A DNA stretch of 64,000 nucleotides. Source: Botryllus schlosseri (Eukaryota). Below the pieces are notes generated by a model, which was not told the DNA's origin, made no database searches, and saw only the letters and a program-made list of their open reading frames with translations. This document shows, piece by piece, positions 8,186 to 61,369 of this stretch; position 1 is the first letter of the stretch; the number at the start of each line of letters is the position of its first letter. The position numbers and the translations under genes were made by a program. Location: the NCBI GenBank assembly GCA_051294905.1, contig CM119377.1, positions 28,954,001-29,018,000 on the forward strand. Reading direction: 5' to 3'.

Positions 8186-8271
8186 ATTGGAGTAGTTGGT
8201 TGTACTAAGGTATGGAAAAACCTGACAGAACCAAAAATTCCATTGTAGTTGTTGGCTGTACTAAAGTACGG
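8186..8271 (+). other. Two SL-like exon+donor copies in the E1 3' UTR (56-bp period)
   Basis: 8186-8209 ATTGGAGTAGTTGGTTGTACTAAG|GTATGG (22/24 to SL); a more degenerate copy at 8242-8265 is followed by GTACGG. Confidence 0.7.
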
Positions 8272-8470: not shown

Positions 8471-8617
8471 AAATAAAAAAAAAACATAAAAATAAACAAA
8501 ATGTGTAGTAAAGACCCCGAGCGGGAGGTAGCCCTATTCTATGAGAGGGCTGCCAAACGCCAGAGGGCTGCCAAACGCCGGCGGATGCCGGGAGCCGTAA
8601 AAAAAATAAGCATCGGC

Positions 8618-8959
8618 TTACTGGACGGTGGCCGGTGCGAAACCCTAGTGGTCCAACCATAATACCTCCAATCACTCTCACACCCAGGAAGAGTATGGCC
8701 TTTGGCCTTCATATTCCGACCCTGGATCTGAGTCTGCTTGACGGGCCAGTATCCCATGCATAGCCATGGTGGCGAGGACAAGCTTGTGGCCCCAGACTCA
8801 AGCCCCTCAAAGACTGGCTATGCAGACTCGCTGCACCTTCATGCTGGGACGGAAAAAATGAAGATGAAATGCGAGTCAACCGCGATGGGAAATCTGTGTC
8901 CTAAGACACAGAGGACCCAATACGGGGGGAGGTTTACTGCGGTTCCTCCGGACAAAAAA
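8618..8959 (+). mobile_element. E2: 5'-truncated LINE 3' fragment (or short non-autonomous element) at the same SL site
   Basis: Ends in ACGGGGGGAGGTTTACTGCGGTTCCTCC (shared with ~49482-49509) plus an A tail. TSD AAGCATCGGC (8608-8617, 8960-8969). Confidence 0.75.
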
Positions 8960-9012
8960 AAGCATCGGCAGGGTGCTGCCAGTTTAGACAGGTGTCTTCC
9001 TAGCTGTTTTTG
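8960..9012 (+). ncRNA. Candidate 3' (intron) part of the interrupted SL RNA gene
   Basis: Continues the target after the TSD: AAGCATCGGCAGGGTGCTGCCAGTTTAGACAGGTGTCTTCCTAGCTGTTTTT. It has hairpin potential and ends in a T-run; no canonical Sm site is present. Confidence 0.45.
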
Positions 9013-11465: not shown

Positions 11466-12721
11466 TTTATTTGTATCGACATTTTATAGCAATTCTGCCC
11501 GGTGTGTAATTCTCAATTGATACCTGTCTATATCCGTTAAGGATATTTGTACCTCGGTGATATATCAAGGTGATCTCCTTGATCGTACCACATTGGTAGC
11601 TGGTAAATTTCTTCCGGATTTCGGCTTCCTCCACTTCTGTCGGGACCGCTCTAATATTTATTTTAAACGTGGGAAGTCTGGGTTGTTCGATGTGTATTGT
11701 ACCTTTTTCCGTGACAATCCCGTTGTGTGTTGTGTCCAGAAAGATCCTTTTCAGTCTTTCTATCGGTGCGTCGGCAGGATACGTTAGATTGTAAGTGTTC
11801 CTGCCTAATTGGAACAAAGAAAGGATGTTGTCTTTGTGTTCAGCGAGTGTTCAGTGCGTTCTTATTGCATCTATGACCTCAATCGCTGTTATCTCTGTTG
11901 GTGTGAGCAAGCCCAAGGATCTAGGTCTGAGGCCATAAGTGACCCTTCGATTGTTCATACCTTGCAGCGCGTGTGAGTATGCCATGTCTGTTGTAAGTGT
12001 ATGTTAGTTCCTGTTAGAGCCAGGCAACTGCTGGCGTCTGGTTTCTGTGTTCGTTCCCAAATACTTGTATCTGCGGCGATAGTTCCTGCTGTGCTGTGTA
12101 GTTGTTGGTTTGCTGCTCTGTGCTAGGCAGGCCGCTATCGATTTGTTGTTTCTCGTAGCCTATATACTGCTGCGCTGTTGTAAACTGCGTTGTTTAGCGG
12201 TGCTTTAGAAGCATTGTGAAGGTTTTTAAAAGGCGTTTCTGCGCGCTTTGTTAGAAAGATACTGCAGTTTCTGGTTTCGCTGGCCGATCGTACGAGCACC
12301 GTCCAGACGGTTTCGTAGCGCGTTAGTAATTTAGGTAGGGAAGCCAGACAAGTCTCTCGACGTCTCGAGCGAGACGCGCGAGAGAGGAGAAAGTGGAGAC
12401 TTGACTCTCTAAAGAAAAGACTCAACGAGTCCTGACTCGAGAGAGAGAGTCAAGACTAGAAGAGGTAGAGAAAAGACTCACCAAGACTCGACCCGCGAAG
12501 AGGAGTCAAGTCCTGCGGAGGTAGAGGGTTTGAGTCAAAAGGTGACTCGAAGTGGAAGTTCGGCGACGAAAAGAAGGAAATGGAAGTAAGTATGTTAGCC
12601 TATGTAAGTCAAAAAAGATAACTAGTAATTACGGTTAGGGTAAGACTAGACTACTGTCTCAGCGGCACCGGATCTCCTTGTTGCACCTGAAAAAGCCGTT
12701 AGTATACTCACGCGTTGCTAC
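11466..12721 (-). mobile_element. E4: 5' portion of an E1-family LINE (5' UTR + partial ORF1), 3' part missing
   Basis: Starts GTAGCAACGCGTGAGTAT, homologous to E1 directly after the SL. Has the GACTC hairpin array. ORF1 MAYSHA..TYGLRPRS starts near 11985 and matches E1 ORF1. Confidence 0.85.
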
Positions 12722-12945
12722 TTTTTTTGGGGGGGGCTTTCCGTATTCGCTGCCTTTGTTCGACCCTCTTTTAGATGTAGGGTCGCTTCCAGGTCAGGAT
12801 TTTTATTACACATTATTTATTAACTCAGGATTTTTATTACACATTATTTATTAACTAAGGTGACTGGTTTGAAATTAATATAACTTTTTGTTTTTGATTT
12901 TCATGCCGTTTAGTATGCCCGAGCTCTCAAGGGAGTGCGAAGGCA

Positions 12946-13172
12946 CATACCTTACTGCAACACAACACTCCAATGGCCAGGATGGGTGGGTTTCTCATTT
13001 TGCCTCTTTCGGACAAAGGCTGCCCACAAGAGAGTACGAAGCTACATACCTTACTGCAACACAACACTCCAATGGCCAGGATGGGTGGGTTTCTCATTTT
13101 GCCTCTTTCGGACAAAGGCTGCCCACAAGAGAGTACGAAGCTACATACCTTACCACAACCAAATACTCCAAT
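12946..13172 (-). repeat. 99-bp tandem repeat in the E3 3' UTR, each unit carrying an SL-like exon + GT donor
   Basis: Exon-like copies 13149-13172 (ATTGGAGTATTTGGTTGTGGTAAG, 22/24), 13050-13073 and 12951-12974 (ATTGGAGTGTTGTGTTGCAGTAAG). Each is followed by GTATGT. Confidence 0.8.
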
Positions 13173-13339
13173 AGGTGGAGTGGGTAGGTTTTGCATGTTT
13201 CTGCTTGTGGACCAAAGGCTGTTCACCCGCCGCGAGCAGGTCAGAGGTTTTTGTTCGGCCCCTCCCCTGAAGGGATTTTAGCCATTTTTCTTTCTTAGGT
13301 TGTTGTTGGGTTAAACAAACTTTCATTTGGAACCCAACT

Positions 13340-15420
13340 TGATTAGGGGTTTTAAGATATTTCCTGCAAAATCTTGTTATTTAGGTTTTGTAACTCATTA
13401 CAGAGGAGAGTTTTGTTTGAGAGTCTCTTTTTTGCTGTTGTTGCGATTCTGTTGTATATGTTTTTTGTCAAATTGGCTTTATCGTATTCATTTTCGATGG
13501 TTCGGTCTAATACAAGTCGATGTTTGAGCATTTGGGTTTTATACATTGTGATTATGAGTCTTGATTGTTTTTGGTTGGTTTCAGTAGGTTTTGCGTAAAG
13601 TATGTTGTCTCTCTGTAGTGATGTTTTCTTCCCGTTTTTCCGCAAGAGATTTTCGAGGAGGGCGAGGATTGGATATCTGGCGCCCCGGGACTGAACATTT
13701 TTGTGATGGTCCGATTACGTGCGTCATTGATTCTTTGATCCTGTTGGCCAGGATTTTTGCCATAATTTCATAGTCGCAGTTGGAAAGCGATATAGGACGC
13801 CAGTTATCCAGGCGTTTCATGTCTCCTTTTTTGGGGATTAATATCACATGCGATTCGCCCCAAGTTTCTGGTGTATTTGTGAAGCATAACGCGCTATTGT
13901 AAATTTCTGAGAGACTGTTCTTAAGAGTTTCAAAAAAAGCGGTATAGAATTCTGGCGAAAGGCCATCTGGTCCCGGTGTCGTAGATGTTTTTTGCGAGCG
14001 TAGTGCCGTTTTTATTTCCTCCTCGGTTATTACTTGATCTTGTAGTTCTTGTTGCTCCCGCGGGATTTGTTTTTCAAGGTCTTGAACCATGTTGTCGATG
14101 CTTCCTTCGGGTGCGCTGTGCGCGATGCCCCAGAGGTTATGGTAATAGTTGCGTGCGTGTGTGAGGATGTTATTTTTTCCACGTATTGGCTCTTTGTTGT
14201 TGTCGGTGAGCTCCGTGATACTTTTTTCTTTTTGTTTCATTCTCAGTTGATCGTAGAACTGTTTCGCTGGTTTTTCTTGATCTTCCATACTGTTTTTATA
14301 TTCCGACTCCACTAAGAAGTCTATTTTTGCCTTTTCAAGGGCTTTTAGTTCCTTGATTAGCTTATTTCTCATATCATTTGATATGTTTGGGTTCTGTAGT
14401 GATTTCTTTCTTTGGTTTGTTTCTTGTGTTTCTTTTTGTTTTTTCTCTATGCCGTATTGGATTGACGTTATTCTGATTTTGTTTTTCAAGGCGTCCCACC
14501 ATTGCCCTATGTTTGGATAGAATGCTTTCTCTAGTTCGAAGAGTTTGATCTCGTTGCGTATGATAGCTCTGTATTCCTGGTGTTCAAGGTGGGCTGCGTT
14601 ATTTTTCCAGCTGCCTTTGCCCCACTTTTCCAAGTGTTTTGATTTTAGATGCAGTTCCACATAGTGCGTATGGTCCGAGATTGGATTGACCTTGTAGGCT
14701 ATGTTCTTTACATCACTTACCAGTTCTTTCCCTGTGTAGATTCGGTCTACTCTTCGCTTGTTTTTTGGCGAGTTCGACATGTACACTTTTGTGCTTGGAA
14801 AGTTCCATCGGTATATGGCTATGACGTTGTTAGTTTTTGTGTATTGCTTCCAGACGGTCGATGCTGGAACTTCGGTAAAAGCGTCTGGGCGCTCAACGTC
14901 TATCGCTTTTGTTACGATATTAAAATCGCCTAGGATGATCCGTACGTTCGTGCGTCTTGGTTTTCTAGTTTGCTCACCACATCCTTATAGAAGTCTAGTT
15001 GTTTGTATTTGCCCGATGGTGGACCATACACATTGGTAATTGCTATCGACTCTTCGCGTTCTAGGTGTATAATTAATTGTTGTGCGCGATGTGTCGTGAT
15101 GATCTCGTGCTGTACGTCAGAGTTGTCAGGGAGCCAGCTTTCCTCAACAAGTATTGCTGTTCCCTGATAGTAGTGCTTGGGGTCCTCCTCGTCTTGCGGC
15201 CTCCACTCACCTCCACTCGTCATCCCTATCTAACGCATTAAGGTATATCTTGTATCCCAAGTTTGTTGCCCAAGTCGTGAGTTGGTGCGTTGTGACTTTA
15301 TGGGTTTCTTGTATACATAGAATGTTGAAGTTTTTTGTTTTAACAAATATGTGGAAACTATTCCAGTGTGCTTGTATTCCATTTATATTTATTGTCGCAA
15401 TGGTTGTTGGTGGAACGCCG
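13340..15420 (-). pseudogene. E3 ORF2 (endonuclease and N-terminal RT), deleted in the RT
   Basis: LCIQETH, GDFN, VDRIY, TPGPDG and NWRPISLSN motifs; the 401-aa ORF 14786-13581 then jumps to C-terminal sequence. Confidence 0.85.
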
Positions 15421-18813: not shown

Positions 18814-21721
18814 CCGTAAACCGGGGTAACTTTGGACTTAAGGGTAACTTTGGACAGTAAGCAGTAAAAGATTTAATTGGTTATTGATGGAAATGTGTTG
18901 CTGCTGGAAGTCTAATTCTTTTTCAGGGGGAGAAGGTACCACAAGTAATTTCAAGAAAAGGTGGATTAATATCCCAACTGGATAAACTTGACCCGTCGTT
19001 GATGAATTAACGGCAGGGGTCAATTTCTGCAAAATTGATGGTCACCATACTTCTTACCACCAAACATTGAAGACATGTGAGCCATATATTCAAAAGTTGG
19101 CAGCAGAAGGCTGTTAGCTCTCCAAAGCCACACAACAAAGCTCAGTGGGATCTGCCTTGGATTGATATCTGATATGGTCATGTCCAAAGTTGCTCCCAGG
19201 GGGCAACTTTGGACAGTTTACAATAAGTGTTCAAACTCAGGTATTGGTGTTGCTTTATCTTCATTCAGGTGCATTCTCAACTATTTTCAGATCTTAGCAA
19301 TGGTGCGCAAGTACAAGGCTAGTGTAGGTGCTAGACCTTATCAGAATTATTCCAAAAGTCAATTGGAGAAGGCAATTGATGCATGCAAGGCAGGTTCATC
19401 AATAAGAAGGGCCTGTGAGAAGTATGGAGTAAGGAGAGGAACATTGAACAATAGACTCAGAAGTCTTCATGGACTGCCGCAAGGTCGACCTAGAGCCCTT
19501 TCAGATGTAGAAGAGAGAGCTATTATCAATCACTTGTTGGTCATGAGCAGTTGGGGGTTTCCTTTTGACATGTATGAAGTGCGGAGGTTAGTAAAACTCT
19601 ATCTCGACAAAACCGGTAGAAATCTTGCACTGTTCAAAAACAACCTTCCTGGCGAAGAGTGGCTGAAGGGATTTTTAAGGAGAAATGAAAGAGTAATTGG
19701 ACTGAGAGTTTGCCAAAATATAAAGAGGAACAGGGCTGCCATAAGCAGAGAGATTATAACCAACTATTTTGAAAATTTAACAACAACCTTGAAAGACGTG
19801 CCACCTGAAAATATAATTACGATGAAACAAATTTATCTGATGATCCAGGAAAGAAGAAGTGTGTATTTGAAAGAGGAGTAAAGTATCCTGAAAGAGTGAT
19901 AAACCACTCAAAATCTGCGACAAGTTTGATGTTTGCTGGGACCGCCAGTGGGGTAATCTTGCCACCATATGTTGTATACAAGTCTGAACATTTATGGACA
20001 ACATGGATGCAAGGTGGGCCAAAAGGGACACGTTACAACAGATCAAGAAGTGGGTGGTTTGATGGCTGTTGTTTTGAAGATTGGTTTATGAGTTTAGTAT
20101 TGCCGCATTGCAGAAAATTACCTGGGAAAAAAGTTCTCATTGGTGACAACTTGTCTAGCCACATTTCTGCCGAGGTGATAAAAAAATGTGAAGATAATAA
20201 CATTGCATTTGTTTGTCTACCCCCCAATAGTACACACCTTTGCCAGCCACTTGATGTGTCATACTTCAGATCTCTGAAGCAAAACTGGCGAAAAATTATA
20301 TTGGAGTGGAAATCTGGATCAGGACGTAAATTCACCATACTGCCTAAAGATTGCTTCCCTGTACTTTTAAAAAAATTGGTCAATGCAATGAAAGCCTCTT
20401 CAAAAGCCACATTGCAAAGTGGCTTCAAAAAGACTGGAATTTTCCCATTTCATCCTCAGGAAGTAATAAAAAGGATTCCAGATGACACAGGAGATCAGGG
20501 TGACCTTTTTGAGACATCACAACTGGTTTCTAGCACTGTAATTGACATTCTATCAGCTGCAAGGTTCAATCAGGACACTACCAAGAAGAAGCGGAAATCA
20601 AGAATCAGTGTTACTCCTGGAAAGGGTGTTACTCCAGAAATTTTAGATTCCGATGATCAGCCAGGACCGAGCGGATTGAGAATGACAACGAGATTATCGC
20701 CCCAGGAAGCGGACAGTGCCTTGGTGATTGAATTTAATGATCATAGCGAACAAGAAGATATGATCATGACTGGTGATGATGACGAGAGATCTGCAAGAGA
20801 AGACAAAGAACAGATTAGAAGAGGGGCGTGGGTTTTGACCTCTTTTTCTGCAAGGAAAAAGACCAAGTATTTCATTGGAGAAGTAATTGCGGTTTTGGAT
20901 GGCGAGCCGGAAGATGGTGATCTGATTGTTTCCTTTCTGGAAAGGCGGGGTAAAACTTATGAATTTTGCTGGCCAGCTATTAAAGATGTAGCAAACATCG
21001 ACTTACAACAAGTTGTAAAAACGCTGGGTGTACCCACAGATGTAATTCGGGGTAATTTGCTGCGTCAACAGGGTGCATTAACCTTCTCCGATCACCTTGA
21101 AGACTTTTGGGATAATTTGAGGGATCCACCTGCAGGATAGGCCTAGAATATTTCGTTCCATTTTCAGACACTTTTCTTTGCAACTTTCTGTAATAAATGA
21201 TGGGTTTTGAAACCTGAACTCTTTCAAAAAAGCCTCAATTGGTGGGATAATGATGTGAAGTTTATTATAAAGATTAAAACAGGAATTGGCACAACTGCAA
21301 CGCAACATGAAAAGTCGACCTCTCTCTCCACCATCGCATGTGATGTGCCGAATAATTGTACACTTCCGTCTGCCTAAACTCAAATCAACACGTAAGCAAT
21401 CAGTCAATCTCACGTGTGATACTCAGAAGCCGAGACAACACTAAGCAGGAGCTACACAAAGGCACAGTAATTTAGGCACGAGGAAATAAAGTAAAATTCT
21501 AACCCTGTCCAAAGTTACCCCACATGCAGGGGTAACTTTGGACAGAGGAAAAACAAAAAAAAAAGGTACTTATTTGTGAAAATGAAGTTTTGAGTAAAGC
21601 TAATTCGAATCTTCAATTCATGACACAAAAAGTACAAAAAAAATATTCCCCCTGGAGACTGGTATAAAAAAATTATCAAGCAAAGTTCGAAAAAATTGTC
21701 CAAAGTTACCCCGGTTTACGG
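18814..21721 (+). mobile_element. pogo/Tigger-like DNA transposon
   Basis: Perfect 24-bp TIR CCGTAAACCGGGGTAACTTTGGAC and TA TSD. Subterminal TIR-like repeats occur near 19185-19215 and 21505-21545. Confidence 0.92.
19300..21140 (+). pseudogene. pogo transposase (HTH + CENP-B-like HTH + DDE_1), one frameshift near 19820
   Basis: SIRRACEKYGV HTH, LIGDNLSSH and QPLDV catalytic-region motifs; the frame breaks at the expected NYDETN segment. Confidence 0.85.
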
Positions 21722-57086: not shown

Positions 57087-60000
57087 GGAGTATTTGGTTC
57101 TGTTAAGGCCGCGCCAGCGTGAGTATTAACTGCTTTTTCAGATTCGAAGACTCGTCGACTGAGCCGCTTCGGCTATTGTAGCTTAGATTTACCGTAAAGA
57201 TTAGATTTAACGTATTGTACCTGTGCCGTAACCAGGTAAGAACTAGTGCCGTAACCAGGTTAGAACCTCCAAGGCTAAATTGTGACTGCTGCTCTGCCGT
57301 ATCTTCGCCGGCAGACAGCAGTCACTTGGGCTACCTCTACTTTACCTCCTTCTACTCTCTTTGCCGTCGACGATCTTCGAGTCTCCTTTAGACTCAACTC
57401 TCTCCAAGTCTTGACTTTCTCTCTCGAGTCAAGTGTTGTCGAGCTCTCCCTCTCCGAGACTTCGCTCTCTCTCTCTCGAGTCTAGTCTTGGTGAGTCTAC
57501 CTTCGCTCTCGCGCCTCTCCCTTGAGACGTCGAGAGACTGCTTTCTTGAACTCGAGTGAGGTTTCTTGAACTCGAGTGAACTCGCCTGACGTCAGCCGTC
57601 GGACGAGTATCGTTCGATTCACAGTGCCGTCTGAGCGCGCAGACTACGCCTATCGAGACACGGAGACAGTAGTATCGATTTCTCGAGCGTCTGGAAACGC
57701 CTTGCTTTGCGCTCTATAGCAAAGCAAAAATAGTATGCAAACGCTCTAACAGGACGCGATAACCAGCGAATAACCTACGGCAACAGGCCACGATCACTGG
57801 ATATAACGACACCACCAAACAGCGAAACAACAGAAGTGATAGATGCCGTTATCACACACCCTAAACTCAAACAATACAGGGAACACATCGCCTCCATCTT
57901 TCGAATAGGCAGAACGACGTACAATATATCCTTCCACGAACATGCACAGGTGGAAATGATACGCGAAGAGTTCCTGGATCAAACAATCACGGGAATAAAC
58001 ATGACAAATGGAACGATGTACGTACAAAAGCCGAGGCCACCTGCGGCACAAATAAACATCAGAGCCGTACCAACGGAGGTGGAAGAACAAGAAGACACAA
58101 AATCGCACAGTACAAATGCGGCACGGTGCAAGAAGTCAAACTAATCTATCACAATGGTACTACCCTCCATAACGGGTACAGACAAGTAACAATAGATGAT
58201 TACGTACCGGGAAGACTTCCGCCCTTCATATACTTGGGACAAGCACCCTGTAAGGTCTACCCACCGAACAATGAGGTAAATGAAACGTGCTTTAAATGCT
58301 TGCAGAGAGGACACACGGCAAGCAGAGAGGACACACGGCAAGCCAATGCCCTAACATGACAGTATACTTCCTATACAAACAAACGGTCACAAATCAGAGG
58401 AAAATACTAAAGGTCGACGAACAAATCACACCAACGGACGTGGAAGAACTACATGAACCTGAAAATAACAACGAAGAACAAAGCCCAACCTCTGCATCCT
58501 TTGATACAGAGGTTGGGCTTTGTTCTTCGTTGTTATTGAGGAGACAGAGATTGAGGAAACAGGAGAGGAAGAAAAAGATGATAATGAAGGAGAAGAAGAA
58601 GAGGACGAAATAGTAGAAGACTACTTTAACCTAGAGCAAAATTCACAAACACCAAGCGAACTTGATACAACGATCATACCAGGTTCACAACACGAAAGCG
58701 AAACTGAAGAACTGCAAATCATCACAAGCGAGGATGAAACCTAAACACAGCAAGATGAAACTCAAGGCAGTAAAAAGCCAAAACACACACTAAATAAAGA
58801 TAGAAATAACCAAACAAAGGTTCGAGGTCAGTCGATTCACGGAAAGCGAATTCTTTAGTGCAGCACAACGCTCACCAAATAAAGGAAATAGTGACGCACG
58901 TAGCCCAACTTTGCCAACGACAAGTAAAAACAGACGAATGCTGGCGAAGCCGAACCCGGGCGAAGAGAAACAGAAAGCCAAAATAGTACCTTGCCCCTTC
59001 CCGCAATCAAAAATGGCTCTTGATATTATCTCCTTGAACATAAATGGAATTAATGCTCACTTGTACAAGCTTGAATGCTTATTGAAAAACAATAAAAGAT
59101 GTAATATCCTCCACAAATAGGCCCAACAGAACAACTGGATATATATCCCGGACCATATTGACGACGGACAATACTGGATAGATAGAATAGGAAACAAAAA
59201 ACATTACTACCAAGGAACCCCGATATTCGTGTAAAAAGAATTAGAGAAAAACCATACCATAGAGAACACCGACATACCATAGAGAACACCACCATGTTAG
59301 AAGATAGGAAACTAACAAAGAGGATGACCAGTCAAAGCACATATACAACGTATATGGACCGGCTGATGTGGGGAGAAACCAAACAGATGTGTTCAAAATA
59401 CTAACGCAGCGCATCGGAAACCATCCAGACAGCGCCATAATCTGCGGCGATTTCAATATAGTAACGAACCGTCTTGACTCGAAAAACAACCGAACGTTCC
59501 AACTTACACCAGCAGCGAAAATCTGGAAACTCTTCACAGAAATCTGGAAACTCTTCACAGAAACCCATAAAATAAGAGACATATGGAGATGGAGAAATCC
59601 AAACAAAAAACTATACTCAGTAATAAAAACTTTCAACTCGAGAAGAGTTGATAGAAGATCCTTATAAGAGAAATATCTTAGCCATGCGCAAACATGCAAA
59701 AAGTTAAAGAACACCTGCAACTCTTCGCACGCTAAAAAAGAAAGGCGGAAATAAACCAAGTAAGAAAACTACGAGAGGCGGAAATAAACAAAGAAAGAAA
59801 ACTACGTGATGAAATAACACGAATACAAAGAAACAGCAACAACGTCTTCGACGCAACGGACAAAATCAAAGAGCTTAAGCAGATGGAGGAAGAGAACATC
59901 ATCCACCAATGCCGGCTCAGTAAGGTAAAGGATATTGAAGAAGGCGAATAGCCGACCAAATACACTAACCAAGAACTGAAACAAAGAAAGGAAAGTAAAA

Positions 60001-60881: not shown

Positions 60882-61369
60882 GGAGTATTTGGTTGTATCA
60901 AGGTCGCACCAGCGTAAGTATAACAAACGGCTTGTTACAGATGCACGGAGCGAACCGGAGCCGCTGGGGCAATAGCTAAACGTACCTAGATACCTACAGT
61001 AATAGCTAGTATTTTTCTTGTGGTAACCTAGACTAGAAAACTTCCTTCCATTTCTTCCTTTTCGTCGCCGGGTATTCACACTCACCTTCGAGTCTCCTTC
61101 AGACTCGTCCCTTCTCCCTCCTGAGACCTGACTCGTCTTCGTGAGTCAGGTCTTAAAGGAGTTTTTTCTACCTCTCCGAGACTTGACTCGTCTTCGTGAG
61201 TCGATTCTCGTTTAAGTATTTTTCTTTAGAGACTTGACTCTCTCTCGAGTCAAGTCTCTACTTTTCTCCTCTCTCGCTTGAGACGCAGAGAGACTGCCTG
61301 CTTATCTTTAGCCTAATTACCTATACGTCTTCGCCGCTGTCTAGACGGCGATCATACGATAGTCTAGCG
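60882..61369 (+). mobile_element. E12: 5' UTR of an E1-family LINE with SL head
   Basis: GGAGTATTTGGTTGTATCAAG (20/21 to SL), GTAAGT donor motif and GACTC array; interrupted by a hAT element. Confidence 0.85.

Follow-up and report, generated by a model that had tools for sequence, protein, structure and literature searches.

What is the significance of a tandem array of spliced leader (SL)-like exons in the 3′ UTR of a LINE? The question is raised by a segment on the minus strand at positions 12945-13172 of the window, the whole stretch of 64,000 nucleotides of Botryllus schlosseri DNA that we have analyzed. As originally predicted, it contains three 24-nt SL-like exons spaced by 99 bp, at 13172-13149, 13073-13050 and 12974-12951, each followed by GTATGT; TRF assigns a period of 99, with 2.5 copies at 93%. 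The original prediction held further that selection maintains the donor function of each unit, and that the array imitates the tandem SL gene clusters of the host. The analysis presented below points instead to a non-functional by-product in a LINE that has lost much of its reverse transcriptase (RT), in which the single exon typical of its clade and one old extra copy were followed by an exact 99-bp duplication. We consider this likely, with a probability of about 0.8.

The reference for all comparisons was the canonical leader at 482-505 on the plus strand of the window, which lies at the head of another LINE. RNA reads confirm this as the leader of the host, since in three bulk runs it begins immediately after the template-switch oligo and continues into diverse sequences. 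We take the sequence to be of the stolidobranch ascidian type. It matches the 'Chordata 1' consensus in the accessible text of PMC3795323. Exact matches to the leader plus GT number 101 genome-wide, and the exact leader was also seen inside several dispersed, LTR-like-looking repeat families (L001-L012).

Copy 1 of the array (13149-13172, minus strand) is the primary exon, homologous to the single exon of sibling UTRs, and differs from the host leader at 2 of 24 positions, 19 and 20. Copy 2 (13050-13073, minus strand) is an old extra copy with 5 mismatches, including one at leader position 12, which is invariant in 22 primary copies. Copy 3 (12951-12974, minus strand) is identical to copy 2, and so also carries 5 mismatches. 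A resemblance of 2, 5 and 5 mismatches in 24 is far beyond chance, and all three exons end in the donor context AAG|GTATGT, such that every unit has a leader exon and a GT donor. The derivation from the SL was thus borne out, as was the placement of the exon at a position homologous to the cassette of a second LINE, E1. In both elements the segment CTCGCGGC..CAGC.TTTGG lies upstream of the first exon, and 36 of 38 sibling UTRs carry an exon at the homologous place. The E1 cassette (8186-8265, plus strand) has two exon copies 56 bp apart, a primary exon at 8186-8209 and a decayed extra copy at 8242-8265 with donor context AAA|GT. Repeat units of 56 bp in E1, 99 bp in the present array and 53 bp in a third lineage agree with the claim that the amplifications were independent.

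The array lies in the 3′ UTR of E3, an L1-group LINE deleted in its RT. The ORF2 remnant (13581-15404, minus strand) comprises the apurinic-type endonuclease (APE) and the start of the RT, and about 1.44 kb is missing near 13671 relative to a closer sibling, so that E3 is unable to encode a full RT, as an autonomous LINE would. E3 aligns over amino acids 20-598 with the ORF2 of an intact sibling, which matches PF03372 and PF00078 and whose top PDB match is human L1 ORF2p (E=8e-61). An L1-group non-LTR retrotransposon is recognized by an ORF2 with N-terminal APE and RT, an ORF1 and a poly(A) tail, and the element agrees with this description in the APE and RT of its intact sibling and in its own A tail.

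Directly upstream of copy 1 is a block of about 170 nt common to sibling 3′ UTRs (13173-13345, minus strand), with modest support for hairpins with a GNRA-type loop. A hairpin-like segment recognizable in the sequence across the clade (12761-12786, minus strand) immediately precedes the short poly(A) tail that ends E3 (12722-12728, minus strand). This tail abuts directly the 5′ head of the next LINE, E2 (12687-12721, minus strand), which begins at the GT found immediately after the leader exon in the heads of siblings; E3 occupies the place of that exon in front of the E2 head. The probable 5′ head of E3 itself is a partial leader at 22736-22759 (minus strand), which would be separated from its body by later insertions. 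In the 5′ region of E3 are inserted an LTR-retrotransposon-like set of ORFs (28915-33939, with 227-bp direct repeats at 28155 and 34253) and a transposase-like ORF pair (19081-21140), both labeled by eye. A U6 copy (22845-22944) and a tRNA-like stretch lie upstream of the probable E3 head (22760-22944), and elsewhere a U6-poly(A)-U1 fragment precedes a LINE head on C3 (L015). U6 was the only Rfam match in the window, and five UTR loci gave none at E<=1.

How did the array arise? The sequence at 13153-13044 is the same as that at 13054-12945 over 110 bases without a difference, consisting of 99 bases plus an 11-base redundancy that is present in all copies. This identity over copies 2 and 3 is bounded by GTAAGGTATGT, and it defines an exact 99-bp tandem duplication (12945-13153, minus strand) whose 11-nt terminal redundancy spans the exon/donor junction. 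Copies 2 and 3 thus result from one duplication event, and the array contains only two independent versions of the exon. The repeat unit takes in the last 50 nt of the upstream block, the remainder of which is not repeated. Among the best-scored candidates in a DNA search the interior of the array has no other match in the genome; matches cover the block and copy 1, and resume downstream.

We propose that the starting state in E3 was the single SL-like 3′ UTR exon of the clade with one old extra copy, and that the third copy was then added by the exact duplication, probably by slippage or unequal exchange at the 11 shared bases. Copies 1 and 2 diverge by about 30%, exceeding the divergence of E3 from its nearest siblings (81-83% identical). 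Together with the retention of AAG|GT in the old copy, this suggests that two copies may already have been present in a lineage that was still active. The old copy might have arisen in place, or by template switch from a sister family; the latter is suggested by the 50 nt preceding copy 2, whose likeness to the sister family is 0.74, compared with 0.65 to copy 1. The suggested comparison of substitutions in exon and donor with those in the spacer was made on the older pair, copies 1 and 2, giving mismatches at 5/26 and 23/74 sites, respectively (p=0.31). This lends no support to selection, in a test that has little power at 26 and 74 sites. Since two of the copies are identical twins, and most relatives have a single copy, the array is likely an accident of copying.

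An exact repeat without a single difference in 110 bases might also be produced in assembly. This is most improbable, given dozens of similar near-exact short duplications in the window and the fetched regions, and the older two-copy state would stand regardless. Near-exact duplications of at least 20 bp in 2-3.5 copies gave 91 entries in 774 kb of fetched DNA, comprising repeat-rich and partly overlapping regions. Those of 50-250 bp cover 0.43%, corresponding to a chance of about 17% that at least one would cover any of 43 cassettes. The same E3 UTR contains an unrelated near-exact tandem duplication of 31 bp, found by TRF (12794-12860, minus strand). Counting diverged duplications, 3 of 18 UTRs have the exon in duplicate, compared with 33 of 251 background tiles (p=0.72), or with 8 of 191 tiles when the three duplicated elements are left out (p=0.057). 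There may be a mild enrichment over background, though not a significant one. On its own the array is an ordinary short duplication in a dead element.

Could each unit nevertheless be a working SL-like mini-gene or donor, in an array selected to resemble the SL gene clusters of the host? All three copies have AAG|GT, exon duplication has occurred separately in three lineages, and SL-type tandem arrays into which the clade inserts do exist in the host. These lie at C7 19.43-19.56 Mb (L109, L156-L164) and on C4 (C4:85474-93473, L104), both with units of about 340 bp, and at C13 23.78-23.93 Mb (L110, L137, L138), with units of about 300 bp. In the host genes the donor is followed by a hairpin and T-run, and the units have upstream motifs of their own. 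The accessible text of PMC7986045 gives an Sm site and stem-loop as criteria for SL RNA genes, while stating that tunicate Sm sites can be atypical. In an SL RNA gene these would be expected 20-60 nt behind the donor. The 80 nt that follow copy 1, a stretch identical behind copy 2, contain neither an Sm-like site of the AT(4-6)G type nor a T5 run; copy 3, folded to 46 nt past the exon, has no T-run. The array region folds no better than shuffled sequences (z -1.05). The proposed check of folding and Sm-like sites has therefore gone against mimicry of host clusters: the hairpin and T-run are lacking, and of the block no more than its final 50 nt recur in the units.

The RNA data agree with this. 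It had been proposed that variant leaders would be found in transcriptomes; none of 160 leader reads has the letter of E3 copy 1 at leader position 19, and copies 2 and 3 have no read depth in any of four RNA runs. These runs come from other samples, which may lack the insertion, were read to 3-13% each, and would have lost short RNAs, so that it does not follow that E3 is silent in its carrier. With copy 3 the twin of copy 2, exon and spacer indistinguishable in substitution (p=0.31), extra copies that decay, host units of 300-340 bp with their own upstream motifs and such a leader undetected in RNA, the evidence has largely contradicted the idea of mini-genes, which is very unlikely. The E3 array is not an SL gene cluster.

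Some features of the host SL loci may be recorded here. The SL-RNA-like arrays are of two kinds, with exons unlike the canonical leader that end in TTAAG|GT; from their sequence they may encode second leaders or SL-related RNAs. A young LINE family (L109:330-400, L110) has a head derived from a C7-type array gene, which is kept in the C13-type array, and its UTR exon is of canonical type. An intact canonical SL gene was not encountered in genome searches, which yielded only 3′ halves located behind tails, and a single locus resembling a retrocopy (L047). The 3′ halves, of a likely canonical gene, lie behind three LINE tails on C14 at 22.20, 24.15 and 24.26 Mb (L165-L167), and end in the same hairpin and T-run. 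The main canonical SL array seems to be absent from the assembly, or wholly invaded.

Having established that the array is unlikely to have a function, we turn to the single exon from which it derives. An HMM was built from the 170-nt upstream block with the exon excluded, using 11 exon-bearing UTRs as seed. It gave 39 matches, 38 of them distinct, and 36 of these 38 have an SL-like exon with no more than 6 mismatches at the homologous position; in one exception the exon is internally deleted, and in the other the block is truncated. Extra copies of the exon occur only in E3 (three copies), E1 (two) and a two-member family (two copies, 53 bp apart). Among 22 family representatives the pairwise identity is 83% for the exon and 61% for the block, falling to 46-50% in the 30-nt flanks on each side, about the level of shuffled sequence.

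The extra copies behave differently. They differ from the host leader at 5, 6 and 7 positions, compared with 2 positions for each first copy in these elements (18/72 versus 6/72, p=0.013) and 58/528 for the 22 primary copies (p=0.002). Evidently the primary exon is held while the extra copies drift. The claim of exon conservation is thus upheld for the primary exon across families, and fails for the extra copies, which decay in all three lineages. Nor is maintenance of the extra donors supported: AG|GT is lost in two of the three extra copies, and where the old E3 extra keeps AAG|GT, copy 3 is simply its exact twin. Most leader positions are kept in 20-22 of the 22 families; position 20 is kept in 7 (with C in 8, G in 4 and A in 3). 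The TTAA of the clade's insertion site is intact in 5 of the 22 primary copies and lost in 17. Between the exon and the tail there are about 120-410 nt.

The expression of a sibling family, L115, could be followed through the letter of the element at position 20, which was found in 28 of 29 reads in run X7, 11 of 56 in X8, 1 of 97 in X9 and 0 of 214 in X13. In X7 the reads cross both exon and donor, and 20 of them extend over a site located 33 nt upstream of the exon. Among the matches listed neither a joint leaving the donor nor a start peak was present, and oligo-adjacent ends fell at the canonical start. In this expressed family the exon is read through without splicing, and behaves as an internal segment of the element RNA. 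A variant exon was found at a LINE head in none of the 30 loci read of 43 found, 20 of which stand behind the block. Selection probably maintains the single exon, as a signal that lies inside the LINE RNA and is not spliced.

The distribution of the cassette indicates that it has a history partly its own. It is found on both deep branches of an endonuclease tree, beside lineages that lack it; the tree was made by a quick method and its exon labels are wrong for at least 6 entries that carry the exon, so counts of changes were disregarded. Block identity barely tracks endonuclease identity (rho 0.18, p=0.09) and exon identity is flat at 78-83%. The cassette therefore likely moves between families. 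It is absent from several families with a long open ORF2, and is thus dispensable. In one family the UTR has a leader-like remnant in decay, and in another the sequence upstream of the exon is non-homologous (L132, in the C1:31992672 region, and L147). A coding role was rejected by eye, as the indels are not in threes. RNAalifold gave no consensus structure for the sibling block; in named helices 79% of cells are paired, with covariation reached by 1 of 500 shuffles, for a structure chosen by eye and with relatedness uncontrolled. A hairpin antisense to the SL is present in single families, and was rejected as a general rule (mean z 0.02 for 27 representatives, and -0.10 for 22, with 1 of 22 in the top 5%).

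The clade prefers the exon/donor junction of the leader for its insertion. In about 29 of 49 cases the tail directly adjoins SL-donor-like sequence, belonging to an element head, an SL-headed SINE-like family, half of an SL-type gene or a repeat with a look-alike site, in a sample pooled over families, classified by eye and biased to clusters; this exceeds the 20% of flanks of one type taken to indicate target preference in the accessible text of PMC4494074. The dispersed repeat with a leader-donor-like site is a frequent landing place of LINEs and SINEs (L046, L053, L060, L062, L140, L141, L150, L153). E1 is inserted at the exon/donor junction of the SL-headed SINE-like family (8598-8960; L045-L072), the body of which has a stretch antisense to its own leader. 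LINE heads at 12687-12721, 506-542, 22700-22735, 57108-57141 and 60903-60940 combine a donor-like motif with a branch point and an acceptor in a span of about 25 nt, and in run X13 seven reads join the leader to such a LINE 5′ UTR.

What might the single exon do? We tentatively favor a putative role in the recruitment of host factors that bind the leader. L1 endonucleases cut at TT/AA, and the TTAA of the insertion site has probably been eroded in the UTR exon such that the element avoids insertion into its own tail; selection for leader likeness would then be coupled to selection against self-insertion. Among the three families that retain GTATTAAG, one has the head of another element at its donor (C7:27650609). 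The UTR module occurs in families only about 30% identical in endonuclease. A scheme uniting these points is possible, though we hold it with reserve: an SL-targeting L1-group clade would carry a mobile 3′ UTR module, a selected leader mimic that binds host SL machinery with its own cut site removed, and the E3 array would be an accident of dosage.

A different history is offered if the exon is a functionless relic that is refreshed by RT through template switching onto leader-bearing RNA, and swapped between families along with the UTR. The flat identity of the exon, the weak relation of block to endonuclease, the presence of the cassette on both deep branches, the U6 and U1 chimeras formed by the clade and the exon behind different upstream sequence in one family would all be accommodated. 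Yet refreshing would restore the whole leader, whereas position 20 differs in 15 of 22 families when most positions are kept in 20-22, and extra copies within the same UTRs stay unrefreshed; we regard this as rather doubtful. It is unlikely that the exon is either a targeting aid, pairing with the target strand in priming, or a spare landing site for later insertions. The exon does have the same sense as the target, and the foreign head at the donor of one of three GTATTAAG-keeping families is what a landing site would receive. On the other hand the exon is about 120-410 nt away from the tail, a family in the C7, C4 and C13 arrays retains a canonical-type exon despite its differing targets, and a landing site would hardly have lost TTAA in 17 of 22 families. 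By analogy, block and exon might serve as a promoter in the tail that starts the next element in head-to-tail trains, re-heading it by splicing to its acceptor. E3 indeed ends on the E2 head with its branch-point and acceptor motif, and by eye about 29 of the 49 tails adjoin either donor-like sequence or a head, SINE or SL-type gene half. But the variant exon was at a LINE head in none of the 30 loci read, with 20 behind the block, and four runs gave no start peak or donor joint among the matches listed, the template-switch-oligo ends being at the canonical leader start. The block HMM matched neither U1 upstream DNA nor C7 array units, in a comparison confined to these two. Such a promoter is quite improbable.

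The array itself is of little import, and interest lies in the single-copy module. An internal, unspliced leader, if it is kept by selection, would mean that sequence-specific binding is a role of the ascidian leader besides cap splicing, and the 22 families would be a natural mutational scan of the leader positions that matter. The loss of TTAA suggests a way in which a site-specific element may harbor its target within its own sequence and remain unharmed.

How do these elements compare with known systems? HeT-A and TART have 3′ UTR promoters, the tail module lying directly upstream of the next element in head-to-tail trains. The present clade shares the trains and the placement of the module, but no transcription start or re-heading was detected for it here. 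The SL RNA genes of Ciona are laid out in tandem. The E3 array resembles the SL RNA arrays of the host in having an exon followed by a GT donor in tandem, and is unlike them in lying within a LINE tail, without hairpin and T-run, Sm-like motif, host upstream motifs or detected leader. Ciona SL RNA is given as 46 nt long, with at least 670 copies, in the accessible text of PMC7986045.

The closest relatives in behavior are elements that insert at spliced leaders. Non-LTR elements located at the SL sequence include CRE, SLACS and CZAR of trypanosomatids, and the clade is like these and NeSL of nematodes in its preferential insertion there. It is unlike NeSL and CRE in having an APE-type endonuclease and L1-like ORF2, with no restriction-like endonuclease. 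The accessible text of PMC4640811 names SL exons as targets and NeSL as SL-specific, such elements carrying a restriction-like endonuclease, and an internal leader mimic in the 3′ UTR goes unmentioned there for NeSL-type elements. Crocodilian Tx1 elements are snRNA-headed and target-preferring (accessible text of PMC4494074, in the main text of which 'spliced leader' occurs 0 times). By analogy, the SL-derived heads and SL-headed SINE-like family of the present clade may be likened to Keno and Tx1-Mar of the Tx1 clade and SINEU, although both target and head are here the spliced leader, and there is a second conserved leader copy within the 3′ UTR. The accessible literature searched, which lies outside Repbase, subscription journals and supplements, reports no SL-targeting or SL-mimicking L1-group element in ascidians. 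SL targeting is thus known in clades with restriction-like endonucleases and snRNA heads are known in Tx1 elements, and the conserved 3′ UTR leader module is a variant of that kind.
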